Of a stretch of DNA of 11,433 nucleotides, positions 1 to 11,433 are shown in pieces. The notes under the pieces are model-generated. The model saw only the letters and a list, made by a program, of their open reading frames with translations, was not told the DNA's origin and ran no database searches. Positions within the stretch are counted from its first letter, which is position 1. The number at the start of each line of letters is the position of its first letter. Both the position numbers and the translations under genes were made by a program. Source of the DNA: a virus (lineage: Duplodnaviria; Heunggongvirae; Uroviricota; Caudoviricetes); the IMG/VR virus record IMGVR_UViG_2695420421_000008, one strand, 5' to 3'.

Positions 1-515
1 AGGGGAGTGGTTTTGAACTGAATGGCAAAGGCACCAGTACGCGCCCCACGCTGATGGTTTCTAACCTGTACGGTATGGTCACCGGGATGGCGGAAGATCT
101 ACAGAGTCTGGTCGGCGGAACGGTGGTCCGGCGTAAGGTTTACGCCCGTTTTCTGGATGCGGTGAACTTCGTCAACGGAAACAGTGACGCCGATCCGGAG
201 CAGGAGGTGATCAGCCGCTGGCGCATTGAGCAGTGCAGCGAACTGAGCGCGGTGAGTGCCTCTTTTGTACTGTCCACGCCGACGGAAACAGATGGCGCTG
301 TTTTTCCGGGACGTATCATGCTGGCCAACACCTGCACCTGGACCTATCGCGGCGATGAGTGCGGTTATCACGGTCCGGCGGTCGCGGATGAATATGACCA
401 GCCAACGTCCGACATCACGAAGGATAAATGCAGCAAATGCCTGAGTGGCTGTAAGTTTCGCAATAACGTCGGCAACTTTGGCGGCTTCCTTTCCATTAAC
501 AAACTTTCGCAGTAA
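1..515 (+). CDS. L: Minor tail protein L, C-terminal ~171 codons (5'-partial; gene begins upstream of window)
   Basis: Open frame runs from position 3 to TAA at 513-515. Translation (GSGFELNGKGTSTRPTLMVSNLYGMVTGMAEDLQSL...CSKCLSGCKFRNNVGNFGGFLSINKLSQ) matches my recollection of the lambda gpL C-terminus, including the Cys-rich segment. Position immediately upstream of K fits lambda gene order. Confidence 0.85.
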   Translation, partial: GSGFELNGKGTSTRPTLMVSNLYGMVTGMAEDLQSLVGGTVVRRKVYARFLDAVNFVNGNSDADPEQEVISRWRIEQCSELSAVSASFVLSTPTETDGAVFPGRIMLANTCTWTYRGDECGYHGPAVADEYDQPTSDITKDKCSKCLSGCKFRNNVGNFGGFLSINKLSQ

Positions 516-520
516 ATCCC

Positions 521-1264
521 ATGACAGAGACAGAATCAGCGATTCTGGCGCACGCCCGGCGATGTGCTCCAGCGGAGTCGTGCGGCTTCGTGGTAAGAAC
601 GCCGGAGGGGGAAAGATATTTCCCCTGCGTGAATATCTCCGGTGAGCCGGAGGCGTATTTCCGTATGTCGCCGGAAGACTGGCTGCAGGCAGAGATGCAG
701 GGTGAGATTGTGGCACTGGTCCACAGCCACCCCGGTGGTCTGCCCTGGCTGAGTGAGGCCGACCGGCGGCTGCAGGTGCAGAGTGATTTGCCGTGGTGGC
801 TGGTCTGCCGGGGGGCGATTCACAAGTTCCGCTGTGTGCCACATCTTACCGGGCGGCGCTTTGAGCACGGGGTGACGGACTGTTACACGCTGTTCCGGGA
901 TGCTTACCATCTGGCGGGGATTGAGATGCCGGATTTTCATCGTGAGGATGACTGGTGGCGTCACGGTCAGAATCTCTATCTGGATAATCTGGAGGCCACA
1001 GGGCTGTATCAGGTGCCGTTGTCAGCGGCGCAGCCGGGCGATGTGCTGCTGTGCTGTTTTGGTTCATCGGTGCCGAATCATGCCGCCATTTACTGTGGTG
1101 ACGGCGAGCTGCTGCACCATATTCCTGAACAACTGAGCAAACGAGAGAGGTATACCGACAAATGGCAGCGACGCACACACTCCCTCTGGCGTCACCGGGC
1201 ATGGCACGCATCTGCCTTTACGGGGATTTGCAACGATTTGGCCGCCGCATCGACCTTCGTGTGA
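521..1264 (+). CDS. K: Tail tip assembly protein K: N-terminal MPN/JAB (JAMM) domain plus C-terminal NlpC/P60 peptidase-like domain
   Basis: 247-aa ORF starting 5 nt after the L stop. It has a JAMM-type motif HSHPGGLPWLSEAD (HxH-x7-S-x2-D) with an upstream Glu (PAESCGF), and a downstream Cys/His region (GVTDCYTLF...NHAAIY) typical of NlpC/P60. Its 3' end overlaps I by 103 nt, as in lambda K/I. An internal ATG at 665 would give the 199-aa product of the classical lambda annotation. Confidence 0.85.
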   Translation: MTETESAILAHARRCAPAESCGFVVRTPEGERYFPCVNISGEPEAYFRMSPEDWLQAEMQGEIVALVHSHPGGLPWLSEADRRLQVQSDLPWWLVCRGAIHKFRCVPHLTGRRFEHGVTDCYTLFRDAYHLAGIEMPDFHREDDWWRHGQNLYLDNLEATGLYQVPLSAAQPGDVLLCCFGSSVPNHAAIYCGDGELLHHIPEQLSKRERYTDKWQRRTHSLWRHRAWHASAFTGICNDLAAASTFV

Positions 1265-1833
1265 AAACGGGTGCCGAAGCCATCCGGGCGATGGCCACAC
1301 AGCTCCCTGCGTTTCGTCAGAAGCTGAGCGACGGCTGGTATCAGGTGCGTATTGCCGGGCAGGATGTTAGCACGTCCGGATTAACGGCGCAGTTACATGA
1401 GGCTCTGCCTGACGGCGCTGTGATTCATATTGTTCCCAGAGTCGCCGGGGCCAAGTCAGGTGGTGTATTCCAGATTGTCCTGGGAGCAGCCGCCATTGCC
1501 GGATCATTCTTTACCGCCGGAGCCACCCTTGCAGCATGGGGGGCTGCCATTGGTGCCGGTGGTATGACCGGCATTCTGTTTTCTCTCGGTGCCAGTATGG
1601 TGCTCGGCGGTGTGGCTCAGATGCTGGCACCGAAAGCCAGAACTCCCCGCACACAGACAACGGATAACGGTAAGCAGAACATCTATTTCTCCTCACTGGA
1701 TAACATGGTTGCCCAGGGCAATGTTATGCCTGTTCTGTATGGTGAAATGCGCGTGGGGTCACGTGTGGTATCTCAGGAGATCAGCACGGCAGACGAAGGG
1801 GACGGTGGTCAGGTTGTGGTGATTGGTCGCTGA
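1162..1833 (+). CDS. I: Tail tip assembly protein I
   Basis: 223-aa ORF, the same length as lambda gpI as I recall it. N-terminus MAATHTLPLASPGMARICLYGDLQRFGRRIDLRV and the Gly/Ala-rich hydrophobic C-terminal half are characteristic. Overlaps the K 3' end in another frame. Confidence 0.85.
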   Translation: MAATHTLPLASPGMARICLYGDLQRFGRRIDLRVKTGAEAIRAMATQLPAFRQKLSDGWYQVRIAGQDVSTSGLTAQLHEALPDGAVIHIVPRVAGAKSGGVFQIVLGAAAIAGSFFTAGATLAAWGAAIGAGGMTGILFSLGASMVLGGVAQMLAPKARTPRTQTTDNGKQNIYFSSLDNMVAQGNVMPVLYGEMRVGSRVVSQEISTADEGDGGQVVVIGR

Positions 1834-1852
1834 TGCAAAATATTTTATGTGA

Positions 1853-1872
1853 AACCGCCTCCGGGCGGTTTT
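1853..1872 (+). promoter_or_regulatory. Small GC hairpin in the I-J intergenic spacer (stem aaccgcc / ggcggtt, loop tccg, followed by tt)
   Basis: Read directly from sequence at 1853-1870, about 25 nt upstream of the J RBS (ggag at 1882-1885). Function unknown; could be an RNA processing or stability element or a weak attenuator. Confidence 0.25.
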
Positions 1873-1893
1873 ATCGTTTATGGAGCATGACGA

Positions 1894-4800
1894 ATGGGTA
1901 AAGGCAGCAGTAAGGGGCATACCCCGCGCGAAGCGAAGGACAACCTGAAGTCCACGCAGCTGCTGAGTGTGATCGATGCCATCAGCGAAGGGCCGGTTGA
2001 AGGTCCGGTGGATGGATTAAAAAGCGTGCTGCTGAACAGTACGCCGGTGCTGGACAGTGAGGGGAATACCAACATCTCCGGCGTCACGGTGGTGTTCCGG
2101 GCAGGTGAGCAGGAGCAGTCACCGCCGGAGGGATTTGAATCCTCCGGCTCCGAGACGGTGCTGGGTACGGAAGTGAAATATGACACGCCGATCACCCGGA
2201 CCATCACGTCGGCAAACATTGACCGACTGCGTTTTACCTTCGGTGTACAGGCACTGGTGGAAACCACCTCAAAGGGAGACAGGAATCCGTCTGAAGTTCG
2301 CCTGCTGGTTCAGATACAGCGTAACGGTGGCTGGGTGACGGAAAAAGACATCACCATTAAGGGCAAAACCACCTCGCAGTATCTGGCCTCGGTGGTGGTG
2401 GGTAACCTGCCGCCGCGCCCGTTTAATATCCGGATGCGCAGGATGACGCCGGACAGCACCACAGACCAGCTGCAGAACAAAACGCTCTGGTCGTCATACA
2501 CCGAAATCATCGATGTGAAACAGTGCTACCCGAACACGGCACTGGTCGGCGTGCAGGTGGACTCGGAGCAGTTCGGCAGCCAGCAGGTGAGCCGTAATTA
2601 TCATCTTCGCGGGCGCATTCTGCAGGTGCCGTCGAACTATAATCCGCAGACGCGGCAATACAGCGGTATCTGGGACGGAACGTTAAAACCGGCATACAGC
2701 AACAACATGGCCTGGTGTCTGTGGGATATGCTGACCCATCCGCGCTATGGCATGGGGAAACGTCTTGGTGCGGCAGATGTGGATAAATGGGCGCTGTATG
2801 TCATCGGCCAGTACTGTGACCAGTCGGTGCCGGACGGCTTTGGCAGCACGGAGCCGCGCATCACCTGTAATGCCTGGCTGACCACACAGCGCAAGGCGTG
2901 GGATGTGCTCAGTGATTTCTGCTCGGCGATGCGCTGTATGCCGGTATGGAACGGGCAGACGCTGACGTTCGTGCAGGACCGACCGTCGGATAAGGTGTGG
3001 ACCTATAACCGCAGTAATGTGGTGATGCCGGATGATGGCGCGCCGTTCCGCTACAGTTTCAGCGCCCTGAAAGACCGCCATAATGCCGTTGAGGTGAACT
3101 GGATTGACCCGGATAACGGCTGGGAGACGGCGACAGAGCTTGTGGAGGATACGCAGGCCATTGTCCGTTACGGTCGTAACGTCACGAAGATGGATGCCTT
3201 TGGCTGTACCAGCCGGGGGCAGGCACACCGCGCCGGGCTGTGGCTGATTAAAACGGAACTGCTGGAGACGCAGACCGTGGATTTCAGCGTGGGTGCTGAA
3301 GGGCTTCGTCATGTACCGGGCGATGTCATTGAAATCTGCGATGATGACTATGCCGGTATCCGCACCGGCGGGCGCGTGCTGGCGGTGAACAGCCAGACGC
3401 GGACACTGACGCTCGACCGTGAAATCACGCTGCCAGCCTCCGGCACCACGCTGATAAGCCTGGTTGACGGGCAGGGGAATCCGGTCAGCGTGGAGGTCCA
3501 GTCCGTCACCGACGGCGTGAAGGTAAAAGTGAGCCGTGTTCCTGACGGTGTTGCTGAATACAGCGTGTGGGGGCTGAAGCTGCCGACGCTGCACCAGCGA
3601 TTGTTCCGCTGCGTGAGTATCCGTGAGAACGACGACGGCACGTATGCCATCACTGCCGTGCAGCATGTGCCGGAGAAAGAGGCCATCGTGGATAACGGGG
3701 CGCACTTTGACGGTGACCAGAGCGGCACGGTGAATGGTGTCACGCCGCCAGCAGTGCAGCATCTGACCGCCGAAGTCACTGCAGACAGCGGGGAATATCA
3801 GGTGCTGGCGCGATGGGACACGCCGAAGGTGGTGAAGGGTGTGAGCTTTATGCTTCGCCTGACTGTGGCAGCAGACGACGGCAGTGAGCGGCTGGTCAGC
3901 ACGGCCCGGACGACGGAAACCACATACCGCTTCACGCAACTGGCGCTGGGAAACTACAGGCTGACAGTCCGGGCGGCAAATGCCTGGGGGCAGCAGGGCG
4001 ATCCGGCATCGGTATCGTTCCGGATTGCCGCACCGGCAGCACCGTCGCGGATTGAGCTGACGCCGGGCTATTTTCAGATAACCGCAACGCCGCATCTTGC
4101 CGTTTATGATCCGACGGTACAGTTTGAGTTCTGGTTCTCGGAAAAGCGGATTGCGGATATCAGGCAGGTTGAAACCACAGCCCGCTATCTTGGCACGGCG
4201 CTGTACTGGATAGCCGCCAGTATCAATATCAAACCGGGCCATGATTATTATTTTTATATCCGCAGTGTGAACACTGTTGGCAAATCGGCATTTGTGGAGG
4301 CTGTCGGTCGGGCGAGCGATGATGCGGAAGGTTACCTGGATTTTTTCAAAGGCCAGATAACCGAATCCCATCTCGGCAAGGAGCTGCTGGAAAAAGTCGA
4401 GCTGACGGAGGATAACGCCAGCAAACTGGAGGAGTTTTCGAAAGAGTGGAAAGACGCCAACGATAAATGGAATGCCATGTGGGGCGTCAAAATTGAGCAG
4501 ACCAAAGACGGCAAACATTATGTCGCGGGTATTGGCCTCAGCATGGAGGACACGGAGGAAGGCAAGCTGAGCCAGTTTCTGGTTGCCGCTAACCGTATCG
4601 CGTTTATTGACCCGGCAAACGGGAATGAAACGCCGATGTTTGTGGCGCAGGGCAACCAGATATTCATGAACGACGTGTTCCTGAAGCGCCTGACGGCCCC
4701 CACCATTACCAGCGGTGGCAGTCCTCCGGTATTTTCCCTGACATCAGACGGAAAGCTGACCGCTAAAAATGCGGATATCAGTGGCAGTGTGAATGCGAAC

Positions 4801-5307
4801 TCAGGAACGCTCAACAATGTCACGATTAACCAGAACTGTACGATTAAGGGCATGCTGGAGGCGACCCAGGTCAGAGGGGATTTCGTTAAAGCTGTATCAA
4901 AAGCCTTCCCGAAAAAAGTCGGTACGTGGGGTAACACGGAAACACCAAACGGTACGGTTACAGTCACCATCAGCGATGATCATAACTTTGACCGCCAGAT
5001 TATTATTCCGCCCATTATTTTTAACGGTATAGCGTATGACGATCCGGGGAGCGGAAATAACCCAGGAGGCACGCGATACACGGGTTATGGTTTTGAAGTT
5101 CGCAAAAACGGCGTATTAATCGCATCCAGAGAAACTAAAGGGGCCATTCCCGGTAGTTACAGTGCAGTTATTGATATGCCTAGTGGTGGTGGTAGCGTCA
5201 CTCTGGAGTTTAAGATTTTCCAGAAAGGCAATCAGGGGGCAGGCAATATCACCGACTGTACGGTGATTGTGACCAAAAAAGCTGCTTCCGGCATCAGTAT
5301 TCGTTGA
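1894..5307 (+). CDS. J: Host specificity protein J (central tail fibre / tail tip, receptor-binding C-terminus)
   Basis: 1137-aa ORF with RBS ggag 8 nt upstream. Size and position after I match lambda gpJ (about 1132 aa). The internal sequence ...[48 protein letters not shown]... matches lambda J as I recall it. The extreme C-terminus appears to differ from lambda's. Confidence 0.9.
3706..5041 (+). repeat. Segment of J that is directly repeated, in diverged form, at 10018..11433
   Basis: Direct comparison of the two stretches by eye: conserved blocks flank a substituted middle cassette. Confidence 0.8.
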
Positions 5308-5328
5308 AATATTTATAACCCCAATAAA

Positions 5329-5354
5329 GGGCGTCAGGAATGACGCCTTTTTTA
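5329..5354 (+). terminator. Rho-independent terminator downstream of J
   Basis: Stem ggcgtca (5330-5336), loop ggaa, stem tgacgcc (5341-5347), followed by a run of six T (5348-5353). Confidence 0.6.
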
Positions 5355-5377
5355 TTGCAGAAAAGCGAGAGGTAATT

Positions 5378-5977
5378 ATGCGTAAAGTTTGTGCAGCAAT
5401 TTTGTCCGCAGCCATTTGTCTGGCCGTATCCGGTGCGCCTGCATGGGCGTCTGAACATCAGTCCACGCTGAGCACGGGGTATCTTCATGCCTCGACGAAC
5501 GTTCCCGGCAGTGATGATCTGAACGGGATTAACGTGAAATACCGTTATGAGTTTACGGACACGCTGGGAATGGTTACGTCATTCAGCTATGCAGGAGACA
5601 AGAATCGCCAGCTTACCCGTTACAGCGATACCCGCTGGCATGAAGATTCCGTTCGTAACCGCTGGTTCAGCGTAATGGCGGGGCCGTCTGTGCGCGTGAA
5701 TGAATGGTTCAGCACGTATGCGATGGCGGGTGTGGCTTACAGCCGTGTGTCGACTTTCTCCGGGGATTATCTTCGCGTAACTGACAACAAGGGGAAAACG
5801 CACGATGTGCTGACCGGAAGTGATGACGGTCGCCACAGCAACACGTCTCTGGCGTGGGGAGCTGGCGTGCAGTTTAACCCGACCGAATCCGTGGCCATTG
5901 ATATTGCTTATGAAGGCTCCGGCAGTGGCGACTGGCGCACTGACGGTTTCATCGTGGGTGTCGGTTATAAATTCTGA
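5378..5977 (+). CDS. lom: Lom outer-membrane protein (Ail/Lom/PagC family beta-barrel; lysogenic-conversion moron)
   Basis: 199-aa ORF with RBS gagagg (5367-5372). N-terminal signal peptide [24 protein letters not shown]. Alternating aromatic/hydrophobic beta-strand pattern and C-terminal [10 protein letters not shown] typical of Ail/Lom barrels. Located between J and stf as in lambda. Confidence 0.9.
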
Positions 5978-6003
5978 TTAGCCAGGTAACACAGTGTTAT
6001 GAC

Positions 6004-6031
6004 AGCCCGCCGGTTCAGGCGGGCTTTTTTG
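6004..6031 (+). terminator. Rho-independent terminator downstream of lom
   Basis: Perfect 8-bp stem agcccgcc (6004-6011) / ggcgggct (6018-6025), loop ggttca, followed by tttttt. Confidence 0.7.
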
Positions 6032-6041
6032 TGGGGTGAAT

Positions 6042-8981
6042 ATGGCAGTAAAGATTTCAGGTGTACTGAAAGATGGCACAGGAAAACCGGTACAGAACTG
6101 CACAATCCAGCTGAAAGCAAAACGTAACAGCACCACGGTGGTGGTGAACACGCTGGCCTCAGAAAATCCGGATGAAGCCGGGCGTTACAGCATGGACGTT
6201 GAGTACGGTCAGTACAGCGTTATTCTGTTGGTGGAAGGATTCCCGCCGTCACATGCCGGGACCATCACCGTGTATGAAGATTCTCAACCCGGTACGCTGA
6301 ATGATTTTCTCGGTGCCATGACGGAGGATGATGCCCGTCCGGAGGCACTGCGCCGTTTTGAACTGATGGTGGAAGAGGTGGCGCGTAACGCGTCCGCGGT
6401 GGCACAGAACACGGCAGCCGCGAAGAAGTCAGCCAGTGATGCCAGCACATCAGCCCGTGAGGCGGCAACCCATGCGGCTGATGCTGCGGACTCAGCACGC
6501 GCAGCCAGCACGTCAGCCGGACAGGCCGCGTCGTCGGCTCAGTCAGCGTCTTCCAGCGCAGGAACGGCATCAACAAAGGCCACTGAAGCCTCAAAAAGTG
6601 CTGCCGCTGCAGAGTCCTCAAAAAGCGCGGCGGCCACCAGTGCCGGTGCGGCGAAAACGTCAGAAACGAATGCGGCAGCGTCAGAACAATCAGCCGCCAC
6701 TTCTGCATCCACCGCGACCACGAAAGCGTCAGAAGCAGCCACTTCAGCACGGGATGCGTCGGCTTCAAAAGAGGCGGCAAAATCATCAGAAACGAGCGCA
6801 GCCTCGAGCGCCAGTAGTGCAGCCTCCTCGGCAACAGCGGCAGGAAATTCCGCGAAGGCGGCAAAAACGTCCGAGACGAACGCCAGGTCTTCTGAGACGG
6901 CAGCGGGACAGAGCGCCTCAGCTGCGGCAGGCTCAAAAACAGCGGCTGCGTCGTCTGCCAGTGCCGCGTCAACAAGTGCCGGGCAGGCCTCAGTCAGTGC
7001 CACCGCAGCCGGAAAATCGGCAGAAAGCGCCGCATCATCCGCTTCAACAGCCACAACGAAGGCTGGCGAAGCCGCTGAACAGGCCAGCGCAGCAGCGAGG
7101 TCTGCATCCGCAGCGATGACATCCGAAACGAACGCGAAAGCCTCGGAAACCAGTGCAGAATCCTCAAAAATGGCAGCTGCATCGTCCGCCAGTTCGGCGG
7201 CGTCATCGGCATCATCTGCGTCTGCTTCAAAAGATGAGGCGAGCAGACAGGCATCAGCAGCGAAAGGCAGCGCCACGACGGCATCCACGAAGGCGACAGA
7301 GGCTGCTGGCAGTGCGACAGCGGCAGCACAGAGCAAAAGTACAGCAGAATCCGCGGCAACGCGCGCCGAGACAGCGGCAAAACGGGCAGAGGATATTGCA
7401 TCCGCCGTGGCGCTTGAGGATGCGAGCACGACGAAAAAGGGGATAGTACAGCTAAGCAGTGCGACTAACAGCACTTCCGAGTCACTGGCGGCAACGCCAA
7501 AGGCAGTAAAAGCAGCCAATGACAATGCTGAGAAACGTCTGCAGAAAGATCAGAACGGTGCGGATATCCCTGGCAAAGACACCTTTACGAAAAATATTGG
7601 TGCCTGCCGTGCCTTCGGTGGGTCAGTAAGCACAACAACAGGAAACTGGACGACTGCACAGTTTATCGAGTGGCTGGATTCTCAGGGAGCATTTAACCAT
7701 CCATACTGGATGTGCAAGGGTTCCTGGTCTTATGGCAATAATAAAATCATTACTGATACTGGCTGCGGTAATATTCATCTCGCAGGAGCTGTCATTGAAG
7801 TAATGGGGATAAAGTCAGCGATGACGATCCGCATTACCACACCGACCACCTCCACTGGTGGCGGAACAACTAACGCCCAGTTTACCTATATTAATCACGG
7901 AACAGATTATTCACCTGGCTGGCGAAGGGACTATAACTCCAGAAATAAGCCAACGGCATCAGAGATCGGGGCGTTACCGTCAGGTGGAACAGCAGTATCA
8001 TCAGTTAATCTGGCTTCAAAAGGTCGGGTAACCGCGCTGACAGACAATACGCAGGGGGCAACAGGTCTTGAGTTATACGAGGTGTATAACAACGGATATC
8101 CAACAGCGTATGGAAATATCATTCACCTGAAAGGGATGACAGCCGTTGGCGAAGGTGAGTTACTCATCGGCTGGAGTGGTACAAGCGGTGCTCATGCTCC
8201 GGCATTTATTCGTTCACGACGGGATACGACCGACGCAAACTGGTCGCCGTGGGCGCAGCTTTACACCTCAGCTCATCCTCCTGCAGAGTTTTATCCAGTC
8301 GGTGCACCAATCCCGTGGCCATCAGATACCGTTCCGTCTGGTTATGCCCTGATGCAGGGGCAGACTTTTGACAAATCTGCATACCCGAAACTTGCAGCGG
8401 CTTATCCGTCAGGCGTTATTCCTGATATGCGTGGCTGGACGATTAAGGGCAAGCCCGCCAGTGGTCGTGCCGTATTGTCTCAGGAACAGGACGGCATTAA
8501 ATCGCACACCCACAGCGCCAGCGCATCCAGTACGGATTTGGGGACGAAAACCACATCGTCGTTTGATTACGGCACTAAATCTACGAATAACACTGGTGCG
8601 CATACCCATAGTTTAAGTGGCAGCACGAATGCAGCTGGTAATCACAGCCATAGAGATGGCCGTCGATTTAACCCCAGTGTTTTTAAAGATACTTATCAAT
8701 ATGGTTATACAAGCTCAGGTCAAAATACCTGGGGTGTACAAGGCTCAGTAGGTATGTCTACGGGGTGGTTAGCTAATACCAGTACAGATGGTAATCATAG
8801 CCACTCACTGTCCGGCACAGCAGCGTCTGCAGGTGCACACGCACATACTGTCGGTATTGGTGCACACACGCACTCCGTTGCGATTGGTTCACATGGACAC
8901 ACCATCACCGTTAACGCTGCGGGTAACGCGGAAAACACCGTCAAAAACATCGCATTTAACTATATTGTGAGGCTTGCATAA
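6042..8981 (+). CDS. stf: Side tail fibre protein Stf: conserved N-terminal anchor, long Ala/Ser-rich repetitive shaft, His-x-His-rich C-terminal tip domain
   Basis: The ORF track starts at GTG 6036; ATG at 6042 ([26 protein letters not shown]...) matches the lambda Stf N-terminus as I recall it. The C-terminal region carries repeated HxH motifs (SHTHS, AHTHS, NHSHR, NHSHS, AHAHT, AHTHS, SHGHT) and ends ...[11 protein letters not shown]. The stop overlaps the tfa start (TAATG). Confidence 0.85.
6384..7420 (+). repeat. Low-complexity Ala/Ser/Thr-rich internal repeat region within stf (recurring ...AAKTSETNA.../...[12 protein letters not shown]... units)
   Basis: About 345 codons dominated by A, S, T, E and K with recurring approximate units; the DNA motif gcggcaaaaacgtc(a/c)ga(a/g)acgaa(t/c)gc recurs near 6650 and 6860, and a related tccgaaacgaacgc near 7120. 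It generates long spurious ORFs in other frames. Confidence 0.6.
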
Positions 8982-9389
8982 TGGCATTCAGAATGAGTGA
9001 ACAACCACGGACTATAAAAATTTATAATCTGCTGGCCGGAACTAATGAATTTATTGGTGAAGGTGACGCATATATTCCGCCTCATACCGGTCTGCCTGCA
9101 GACAGTACCGATATTGCACCGCCAGATATTCCGGCTGGCTTTGTGGCTGTTTTCAACAGTGATGAGGCATCGTGGCATCTCGTTGAAGATCATCGGGGTA
9201 AAACGGTTTATGACGTGGCATCAGGGGACGCGTTATTTATTTCTGAACTCGGTCCGTTACCGGAAAATGTCACCTGGTTATCCCCGGAAGGGGAATATCA
9301 GAAGTGGAACGGTACAGCCTGGGTGAAAGATGCAGAAGCAGAAAAACTATTCCGGATCCGGGAGGCGGAAGAAACAAAAAACAGCCTGA
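8936..9389. repeat. Left arm of a 454-bp inverted repeat (stf last 14 codons + tfa codons 1-136)
   Basis: Reverse-complement identity with 9574..10027 checked by eye at both ends and at an internal stretch (9001-9060 vs 9903-9962). Translations of three ORF pairs across the arms are identical (tfa N-terminus, 93-aa and 77-aa alternate-frame ORFs), implying essentially 100% DNA identity. Symmetry centre is between 9481 and 9482. Confidence 0.9.
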
Positions 9390-9442
9390 ATGCAGGGGAT
9401 ATTGATTTATGGTTGACTTGGCCACTCGATATCTGGAGATAG
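8981..9442 (+). CDS. tfa: Tail fibre assembly protein, truncated or chimeric copy: first 136 codons identical to the minus-strand copy, then a 17-aa unrelated tail
   Basis: Start overlaps the stf stop, with gtgagg RBS upstream. The N-terminal 136 aa ([24 protein letters not shown]...EAEETKNSL) are identical to ORF 9407..9982(-). After the repeat boundary at 9389 the frame reads [17 protein letters not shown], which lacks the conserved Tfa C-terminus. Confidence 0.6.
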
Positions 9443-9982
9443 TGATGTATCAACACGGTTCAGCAACACCCGATACTTTTTCCAAGCTTCCAGCAACGAG
9501 GTTTCTTCCTCTGTTGCGATTTCCAGATCTACAGCATCCTGAAGCGGCGCAATATGCTCACTGGCTACCTGCATCAGGCTGTTTTTTGTTTCTTCCGCCT
9601 CCCGGATCCGGAATAGTTTTTCTGCTTCTGCATCTTTCACCCAGGCTGTACCGTTCCACTTCTGATATTCCCCTTCCGGGGATAACCAGGTGACATTTTC
9701 CGGTAACGGACCGAGTTCAGAAATAAATAACGCGTCCCCTGATGCCACGTCATAAACCGTTTTACCCCGATGATCTTCAACGAGATGCCACGATGCCTCA
9801 TCACTGTTGAAAACAGCCACAAAGCCAGCCGGAATATCTGGCGGTGCAATATCGGTACTGTCTGCAGGCAGACCGGTATGAGGCGGAATATATGCGTCAC
9901 CTTCACCAATAAATTCATTAGTTCCGGCCAGCAGATTATAAATTTTTATAGTCCGTGGTTGTTCACTCATTCTGAATGCCAT
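9407..9982 (-). CDS. tfa: Tail fibre assembly protein, full-length copy with canonical Tfa C-terminus
   Basis: 191 aa, close to the lambda Tfa length as I recall it. C-terminus ...[34 protein letters not shown] resembles the lambda Tfa C-terminal region. It is preceded on the minus strand only by the last 14 codons of a stf-like gene (9983..10027). Confidence 0.75.
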
Positions 9983-10027
9983 TATGCAAGCCTCACAATA
10001 TAGTTAAATGCGATGTTTTTGACGGTG
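9574..10027. repeat. Right arm of the 454-bp inverted repeat (inverted tfa codons 1-136 + inverted stf last 14 codons)
   Basis: Same as the left arm. Identity ends at 8935/10028 on the outside and 9390/9573 on the inside. Confidence 0.9.
9983..10027 (-). pseudogene. Orphan 3' end of a stf-like gene (last 14 codons, ...[14 protein letters not shown]) on the minus strand, upstream of the minus-strand tfa
   Basis: Part of the inverted-repeat right arm. No further stf coding sequence follows on the minus strand, because the sequence switches to J homology at 10018..10028. Confidence 0.6.
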
Positions 10028-11433
10028 ACCAGAGCGGCACGGTGAATGGTGTCACGCCGCCAGCAGTGCAGCATCTGACCGCCGAAGTCACTGCAGACAG
10101 CGGGGAATATCAGGTGCTGGCGCGATGGGACACGCCGAAGGTGGTGAAGGGCGTGAGCTTCCTGCTCCGTCTGACCGTAACAGCGGATGACGGCAGTGAG
10201 CGGCTGGTCAGCACGGCCCGGACGACGGAAACCACTTACCGCTTCACACAACTGGCGCTGGGGAACTACAGGCTGACAGTCCGGGCAGTAAATGCGTGGG
10301 GGCAGCAGGGCGATCCGGCGTCGGTATCGTTCCGGATTGCCGCACCGGCAGCGCTGTCGCGGATTGAGCTGACGCCGGGCTATTTTCAGATAACCGCCAC
10401 GCCGCATCTTGCGGTTTATGATCCGACGGTACAGTTTGAGTTCTGGTTCTCGGAAAAGCGGATTGCGGATATCAGGCAGGTTGAAACCACAGCCCGCTAT
10501 CTTGGCACGGCGCTGTACTGGATAGCCGCCAGTATCAATATCAAACCGGGCCATGATTATTACTTTTATATCCGCAGTGTGAACACCGTTGGCAAATCGG
10601 CATTCGTGGAGGCTGTTGGTCAGCCGAGTGATGATGCATCCGGTTATCTGGATTTTTTCAAAGGCGAGATAGGGAAAACCCATCTGGCTCAGGAGCTGTG
10701 GACGCAGATTGATAACGGTCAGCTTGCGCCTGACCTGGCTGAAATCAGGACGTCCATTACGGATGTCAGCAATGAAATCACGCAGACCGTCAATAAGAAA
10801 CTGGAAGACCAGAGTGCGGCAATTCAGCAGATACAGAAGGTTCAGGTTGATACAAATAATAACCTGAACAGCATGTGGGCTGTGAAGCTGCAGCAGATGC
10901 AGGACGGACGCCTTTATATCGCGGGTATTGGTGCCGGTATTGAGAACACCCCTGACGGCATGCAGAGTCAGGTGCTGCTGGCGGCGGACAGGATTGCGAT
11001 GGTTAATCCTGCGAATGGCAACACAAAACCGATGTTTGTTGGTCAGGGCGATCAGATATTCATGAACGACGTGTTCCTGAAACGCCTGACGGCCCCCACC
11101 ATTACCAGCGGTGGAAATCCATCGGCATTTTCCCTGACTCCGGACGGAAAGCTGACCGCTAAAAATGCGGATATCAGTGGCAGTGTGAATGCGAACGCCG
11201 GGACGCTCAACAATGTCACGGTAAATGAAAACTGTACGATTAAGGGCATGCTGGAGGCGACTCAGGTCAGAGGTGACTTCGTTAAAGCTGTATCCAAATC
11301 ATTTCCGAAACAGGCTGGTACGTGGGGTAACACGGAAACACCAAACGGGACGGTTACAGTCACCATAAGCGATGATCATAACTTTGACCGCCAGATTATT
11401 ATTCCGCCCATTATTTTTAACGGTATAGCGTAT
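10018..11433 (+). pseudogene. 5'-truncated second copy of host specificity protein J (homologous to J codons ~605 onward), running off the 3' end of the window
   Basis: In-frame homology to J 3706..5041. Roughly 85-93% nt identity in the flanking blocks on spot checks (10018-10650 vs 3706-4340; 11060-11433 vs 4665-5041). A divergent central cassette is about 400 nt here versus about 310 nt in J. It lacks the first ~604 codons of J. The only in-frame ATG upstream is at 9976, inside the repeat, with no obvious RBS. Confidence 0.6.

Follow-up and report, generated by a model that had tools for sequence, protein, structure and literature searches.

Short-read draft genomes built with Velvet, SSPACE and GapFiller can contain false closures and fold-back misassemblies, and these are the closest known match for the locus described here. 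In the pipeline of Page et al. (2016), Velvet is followed by SSPACE and then by GapFiller 1.11 with 120 iterations; the Shigella sonnei genomes obtained in this way have a mean of 405 contigs per assembly, and the authors note that the greedy tools in the pipeline are capable of false joins. GapFiller regards a gap as closed once the extensions share an overlap of at least n, with a default n of 10 nt (PMC3446322). The window, by which we mean the whole 11,433-nt stretch of DNA analysed, contains two joins of interest, junction A at 9389/9390 and junction B at 10018-10027. The window resembles the false closures made by SSPACE and GapFiller on Velvet contigs in that the overlap at junction B equals the default 10-nt minimum, repeats lie on both sides, the contig ends k-1 bases into a repeat and the join occurs in one draft contig only. 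In contrast to a GapFiller false closure, junction A is no overlap merge.

The closest biological mechanisms are tandem inversion duplications (TIDs), ODIRA inverted triplications and the DUP-TRP/INV-DUP rearrangements generally known from human genomes, all of which have the copy order direct, inverted, direct that the window, too, seems to show. The window is also like a TID in that its first turn lies at a short hairpin-forming inverted repeat and its second at a pair of 10-mers in J and stf; in the TID model of Kugelberg et al. the second switch needs a short inverted pair of this kind (PMC4689423). The biological match is incomplete because the third copy in the window (J') is a different allele after 134 nt; hence, unlike that of a TID or an inverted triplication, it matches the first copy for 134 nt only. 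Furthermore, the inverted copy in the window is only 643 nt long, unlike those of TIDs and ODIRA products.

Palindromes that arise when an assembly turns at a hairpin telomere and re-reads the DNA backwards occur in the same phage family, the N15-like elements. One such locus, L010, holds a perfect palindrome with 4,197-nt arms and 0-nt spacing, at whose centre CCCCATTATACGCG abuts CGTATAATGGGG, which we take to be the N15-type telomere core. Unlike L010, the window turns at the hairpin of a transcription terminator, 2.6 kb inward of the telomere, and does so asymmetrically, with 190 nt gone from the left arm and a 184-nt spacer. The invertible segments of the Din family (Mu G, P1 C and e14 P) are like the window in that its tfa genes are opposed beside the stf 3' end; unlike them, it has neither an invertase gene nor crossover sites, and its copies are identical, not alternative.

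An exact-protein look-up of J identified the window as the entire 11,433-bp contig CXFA01000187.1 of assembly GCA_001257695.1, a short-read draft of Shigella sonnei; the J protein is on record as WP_052992659.1/CST28145.1 from this species. No publication on this assembly came up when the literature was searched for its accession. The accessions CXFB01, CXFC01, CXFD01, CXFE01 ... CXFZ01, CXGA01 and CXGC01 are S. sonnei genomes from ERP000182 that appear in the supplement of Page et al. (2016); within the portion of that supplement from which accessions were listed, CXFA01 itself was not found. From the adjacent accessions, the species and the behaviour of the contig, we infer that CXFA01 passed through the same Velvet/SSPACE/GapFiller pipeline. 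The contig holds both arms of a perfect 454-nt inverted repeat, far longer than a short-read k, so that it is not a plain unitig, and repeat resolution, scaffolding or gap filling therefore took part in its construction. The earlier note on this DNA had left out the 9389/9390 junction, the 134 nt of identity between J and J', and the fact that the window is one short-read draft contig in its full length.

Along the contig come L', which runs off the contig end, then K, I, J, lom, stf, partial tfa, the inverted block and J'. The features are as follows.

1..515, plus strand: tail gene L, 3' part only, as the gene runs off the contig (PF05100 Phage_tail_L).
521..1264, plus strand: tail tip gene K, a JAB/NlpC-P60 peptidase of 247 aa (ORF; PF14464, PF00877).
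1261..1833, plus strand: tail assembly gene I (PF06805 Lambda_tail_I).
1894..5307, plus strand: intact J, host specificity/tail tip protein of 1137 aa (ORF; gpJ Pfam domains; exact protein on this contig only).
3706..3715, plus strand: J-internal copy of the junction 10-mer TTTGACGGTG (base reading, 10-mer count).
5378..5977, plus strand: lom, Ail/Lom outer-membrane protein (PF06316).
6036..8981, plus strand: stf, side tail fibre, 981 aa from GTG 6036 and 979 aa as called from 6042 (ORF; PF08400, PF07484).
8936..9389, unstranded: left arm of the inverted repeat, comprising the last 46 nt of stf and the first 409 nt of tfa (repeat finder).
8981..9442, plus strand: truncated tfa frame of 153 aa, native to nt 409 (9389) and foreign sequence thereafter (compared with native Tfa translations).
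9385..9396, unstranded: junction A, where the tfa interior (...CCTGA) runs into the tfa/sopB terminator hairpin at its centre base A, with the right half following.
9390..9573, minus strand: spacer, the reverse complement of tfa nt 410-576, 10 nt past the stop and half of the terminator hairpin.
9407..9982, minus strand: full-length inverted tfa, 191 aa (ORF; exact protein in N15-like plasmid prophages).
9574..10027, unstranded: right arm of the inverted repeat (repeat finder).
9982..10027, minus strand: last 14 codons and stop of stf, inverted.
10018..10027, unstranded: junction B, the 10-nt TTTGACGGTG common to the inverted stf end and J.
10018..10151, plus strand: segment in which J' has 100% identity to J 3706-3839 of the same contig, so that J and J' are indistinguishable here.
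10152..11367, plus strand: J'-specific stretch, a second J allele (98.2% to the prophage J of E. coli YPE10 up to 11246).
11368..11433, plus strand: final 66 nt, where the contig returns to 100% identity with J (4972-5037).

The lambda-type tail module matches N15-like linear plasmid prophages most closely, as judged by sequence comparison. The 191-aa Tfa encoded on the minus strand is exactly the Tfa of these elements, in which tfa is followed by sopB, sopA, the telomere, the protelomerase gene telN and repA. Positions 1-9396 of the window are 97.9% colinear with two N15-like loci (L009 and L014), and the inverted block (9385-10027) has 99.7% identity to the last 46 nt of stf, tfa and 22-23 nt downstream in the same two loci (subject 9956-10599). 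The window itself holds none of sopBA, telN and repA; it is the Tfa, the downstream 22 nt and the colinearity that match N15-like elements.

The repeat finder returned the inverted repeat 8936-9389/9574-10027, with arms of 454 nt that are separated by 184 nt and proved 100% complementary when their identity was re-checked, together with a direct repeat that starts at 3706 and 10018. These arms bear out the arrangement described in the earlier note, with inverted stf/tfa to the left of junction B and J in direct orientation to the right, and the stf remnant does comprise 14 codons, plus a stop (9982-10027). The two copies of the stf end and tfa show 0 mismatches, and the tfa alleles of related loci differ from that of the window by 0.3-6%. 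The inverted block is a 100% identical second copy of the same stf-end/tfa sequence and not a second locus. The proposal that a second J had lost its 5' ~1.8 kb and a second stf most of its length finds no support, given that the stf end and tfa are the same sequence copied.

At junction B, stf 8936-8945 reads CACCGTCAAA, and its reverse complement TTTGACGGTG is found at 10018-10027 and at J 3706-3715. Base reading and the repeat finder return all three positions of the 10-mer exactly as first noted, and in the whole window it occurs at the 8936, 3706 and 10018 sites only. The identity is exactly 10 nt long. On its left, 10017 is T and J 3705 is C, and on its right, 10028 is A, against the T expected from the complement of stf 8935. 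In megablast searches of 5,426 complete E. coli genomes and 50,697 phage records, the J alignments all start at window base 10018. In terms of the J gene, the start of J' corresponds to nt 1813, with which codon 605 opens. An ORF of 233 aa on the minus strand (9982-10683) crosses the junction and fuses antisense J' in frame to the stf tail.

Under blunt random joining, a junctional identity of at least 10 nt has P ~8e-6, which implies that the 10-nt overlap was used in making junction B, be it by a cell or by a program. The description of junction B as a microhomology-mediated illegitimate join therefore stands in one respect, the identity being far greater than chance; an origin in the cell is no more than a possibility, as the join lies in a draft contig and the GapFiller rule is 10 nt. 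The 10-mer TTTGACGGTG is also present in the J genes of two related loci (L002 and L003). In the related loci compared (L002-L014), 5.2 kb separates stf/tfa from the J interior, and both run in the same direction. With this parental arrangement, the 10-mer in J and the one in stf are inverted relative to each other at a distance of 5.2 kb.

On the J' side of junction B, the first difference between J and J' is at 10152, 134 nt into J' (10018-10151 corresponds to J 3706-3839). After the last J/J' difference, the contig continues for exactly 66 nt and stops. A stop 66 nt into J-identical sequence looks like the end of a de Bruijn node, as expected with k = 67. The J'-specific stretch 10152-11367 therefore behaves like a branch node, with J-identical flanks on both sides. 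Nothing in the contig supports a truncation of J' at nt 1813 in a real genome, because the upstream part of J' is indistinguishable from J. A protein search for the parent of J' gave matches of at best 98% identity, mostly to partial J proteins at contig ends, and is uninformative on J' in this isolate.

Junction A has a different character. In 10 of 10 N15-like loci, tfa is followed by TAAATCAATATCCCCTGCAATGCAGGGGATAG, a hairpin with a 10-bp stem. It lies between tfa and sopB, which converge on it, and is scored as a terminator for both directions. Folded as DNA, this hairpin has a dG of -10.4 kcal/mol and a z of -4.9. The plus-strand tfa of the window reaches ...CAGCCTGA (9389) and then continues with A TGCAGGGGATA TTGATTTATGG..., that is, with the centre base and right arm of the hairpin, after which the whole sequence left of the hairpin follows in reverse complement. 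The inverted block therefore turns at the centre of the terminator hairpin (9389/9390). It follows that the "extra A" at 9390 is no mutation in tfa, as the base is the centre of the hairpin.

Compared with a perfect snap-back palindrome, the left arm is short by 190 nt, namely tfa 410-576 and the left half of the hairpin, and the missing stretch is bounded by the near-repeats CCTGA.TGCAGG and CCTGCA.ATGCAGG. The 12-mer at the junction, CCTGAATGCAGG, is in neither parent, which places junction A beyond explanation by an exact overlap of at least 10 nt; a merge by exact overlap is ruled out, the parents sharing at most 1 nt in register. Hence junction A was probably present in the reads, either in real molecules or in snap-back products of the library. 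A scan of viral contigs found no perfect snap-back palindrome at the terminator, and an exact-protein look-up found no record of the truncated tfa product.

We looked for either junction elsewhere. Megablast of complete E. coli genomes, phage records and plasmids returned no record that spans junction B, and an exact scan of genome, viral and metagenome collections did not find its 30-mer. The same collections lacked the 28-mer of junction A, for which no spanning record was found either. Adjacency of an stf end and a J interior as an ordinary conserved arrangement, raised in the earlier note, was accordingly absent from the E. coli genomes, phages, plasmids and k-mer collections searched. The 233-aa ORF across junction B matched this contig only in the exact-protein look-up. 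Look-ups for an un-rearranged parent with the truncated tfa, stf (981 and 979 aa), J and the junction ORF likewise returned this contig only.

Junction B is most likely not a real feature. We consider it probable that the join was made in silico, as a false gap closure in a scaffolded short-read assembly built on a fold-back. The isolate would carry the lambda-type tail module together with a second J allele, J', which would form a branch node flanked by J-identical sequence. At junction A, just past tfa nt 409, the main contig would fold back at the terminator hairpin between tfa and sopB, and this fold-back, probably supported by reads, may represent either real fold-back molecules or snap-back molecules of the library. 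Greedy gap filling would next run through this tfa and stf end a second time, in reverse. The J' node would meanwhile be extended leftwards via sequence shared with J until the two extensions had 10 nt in common (TTTGACGGTG), at which point the program would call the gap closed.

The length of the overlap at junction B is the GapFiller minimum (n = 10), repeats flank the join on both sides, and the join is unique to this contig; it may well be that this pipeline made a closure at this very spot in this assembly. Arms with zero mismatches fit a single genomic copy that was read twice. The choice of 10-mer was considered in a model of the two extensions, in which the left one is the fold-back continued and the right one is a leftward walk from the first J'-specific base. 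The modelled extensions share 79 10-mers. Of these, TTTGACGGTG would be met first, since it needs the smallest total extension (638 nt from the left plus 134 nt from the right); three others come earlier on the left but require more than 3 kb of extension on the right. The biological model offers no reason for the choice of TTTGACGGTG among the shared 10-mers.

Some observations count against a false closure. A chance 10-mer match in a search space of 638 x 134 is expected ~0.08 times. Junction A lies outside any overlap merge of at least 10 nt, and at least one unusual junction was probably present in real molecules. Microhomologies of ~10 bp are normal for RecA-independent illegitimate recombination, and this too was counted against the false closure, as was the observation that real complex rearrangements usually come with two junctions.

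A real rearrangement in vivo, in which replication switched templates twice (a mechanism of the FoSTeS/MMBIR, tandem-inversion-duplication or DUP-TRP/INV-DUP type), is a possibility that we hold tentatively. The nascent strand would leave tfa at nt 409, re-prime on the opposite strand at the hairpin and copy back 643 nt; it would then pass, via the inverted pair formed by CACCGTCAAA in stf and TTTGACGGTG in J, into J, where forward synthesis would resume. The target may have been the phage's own J, in which case the contig then wanders into J' via the 134 nt, or the J of a co-resident phage. Such a course accords with short homology at both ends of the block (10 nt at junction B, near-repeats at a strong hairpin at junction A), with the low chance (8e-6) of at least 10 nt of microhomology, and with junction A being unexplained by an overlap merge. 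The J and stf 10-mers also form an inverted pair, as the second switch of the TID model requires (PMC4689423).

Two template switches fit less well with an overlap whose length equals the software threshold. They would also make coincidences of a join at most 134 nt from the first J/J' difference and of the use of the first-met 10-mer, about 1 in 79 among the 10-mers alone. Furthermore, J' diverges from J after 134 nt, so that an event within one molecule would need an assembly mis-path as well, and the structure was found nowhere else that was searched.

In a more specific form, which we regard as rather doubtful, both junctions would be real, an N15-like linear plasmid prophage in S. sonnei having folded back at the tfa/sopB hairpin and then re-entered J via the 10-nt inverted pair. 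The first turn could be the healing of a broken end that lacked sopBA and the telomere, or a template switch in replication, and the centre of the palindrome would have been made asymmetric by a 190-nt deletion between the near-repeats. With both junctions real, the window would show that a DUP-TRP/INV-DUP or tandem-inversion-duplication structure had arisen naturally in the genome of a phage. This would be a modest, single-isolate case of replication-based inverted duplication in a linear plasmid prophage, in which the tfa copy after stf is destroyed and no function is evident.

Chimeric library molecules, that is, fold-back or template-switch products formed in vitro during end repair or PCR and frequent enough to be used for extension, are an improbable source of the structure. 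The turn at junction A exactly at the centre base of a hairpin with a 10-bp stem is what a single-strand snap-back in vitro would give, and assemblies from the same family do read through hairpins and back, as in the perfect 4,197-nt palindrome at the telomere of L010. However, one and the same stf-J chimera would have to recur many times to pass the coverage thresholds, and no sequence feature demands chimeras. The convergent tfa genes and inverted stf 3' end are superficially like the Mu G, P1 C and e14 P segments, but a remnant of a Din-family (Gin/Cin/Pin) invertible tail-fibre segment, with alternative stf ends and tfa genes, is hardly conceivable and effectively refuted: the window has no invertase gene, the repeat boundaries have no crossover-type core (the sole match with one mismatch, at 11026, is consistent with chance), the inverted copy is 100% identical to the direct one and offers no alternative allele, and 10 of 10 N15-like loci have tfa directly followed by sopB, without an invertible segment.

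Should the favoured reading of junction B as a false gap closure be correct, "microhomology" joins of exactly 10 nt may be present in thousands of public drafts made with this pipeline, wherever prophage regions are rich in repeats. Such joins would imitate illegitimate recombination and give rise to annotated chimeric ORFs, as at 9982-10683 here, and surveys of breakpoints should then screen them out. E. coli AW1.7 was considered as a precedent and rejected, as its junction is a different one, in which tfa and a J fragment are fused in direct orientation and J has an internal deletion; that J-tfa junction is likewise private to its own strain.

Comparison of window positions 1-9396 with two N15-like linear plasmid prophage loci (L009 and L014) suggests that the tail module of a putative N15-like linear plasmid prophage is present in the Shigella sonnei isolate. 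The J and stf alleles of the window were seen in no other assembly of the collection, and none of sopBA, telN and repA is on the contig.

Junction A (window 9385-9402) is where the inverted stf-end/tfa block starts, and its first base coincides exactly with the middle base of the bidirectional terminator hairpin that N15-like phages have between tfa and sopB. On the plus strand, tfa breaks off at nt 409, with the near-repeats CCTGA.TGCAGG and CCTGCA.ATGCAGG on either side of the cut; this truncated gene (8981-9442) is without annotation in the public record. An exact-overlap merge as the origin of junction A was ruled out, as it cannot account for this hairpin-centre and near-repeat structure, and hence junction A may be a genuine fold-back junction. 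Two assemblies of N15-like plasmid prophages read through the hairpin telomere and then back, the first being an ENA metagenome scaffold (L010) with the following feature:

L010 9000-17393: perfect palindrome with 4,197-nt arms and no spacer

The centre of this palindrome lies between CCCCATTATACGCG and CGTATAATGGGG, and the same mirrored gene order is found in the 75.5-kb CP088562.1 (L008).

At junction B, where 10 nt (10018-10027) are common to the inverted stf end and J (3706-3715), the public record annotates one coding sequence:

Window 9982-10683, minus strand: 233-aa CDS

This CDS runs antisense to J' (the second J allele, from 10018 to the contig end) and is fused in frame with the last 14 stf codons; it is therefore a spurious chimeric ORF, a product of the join. 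The segments on either side of the J'-specific stretch (10018-10151 and 11368-11433) match the intact J gene of the same contig at 100% identity, and the contig ends exactly 66 nt past the last J/J' difference. This arrangement suggests that the isolate has two J alleles and that the J'-specific stretch was a node in a de Bruijn graph built at k = 67.

A further J breakpoint was found in a defective prophage adjoining ybhB-bioA in E. coli AW1.7:

L001 8522-10685: J pseudogene

This pseudogene has a 1.18-kb deletion inside the gene, with tfa fused straight onto the J remnant. The right breakpoint of the deletion, at window-equivalent 3716, immediately adjoins the breakpoint studied here (3706-3715). 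The deletion junction is contiguous in the two AW1.7 assemblies only, and so the nearness of the two breakpoints is probably a coincidence, with a hotspot as the less likely reading.

Short direct repeats were also observed in the N-terminal half of stf (window 6648-7240). Their spacings (84, 126, 168, 252 and 294 nt) are multiples of 42 nt, a pattern consistent with a shaft segment of repetitive structure, coiled or fibrous.
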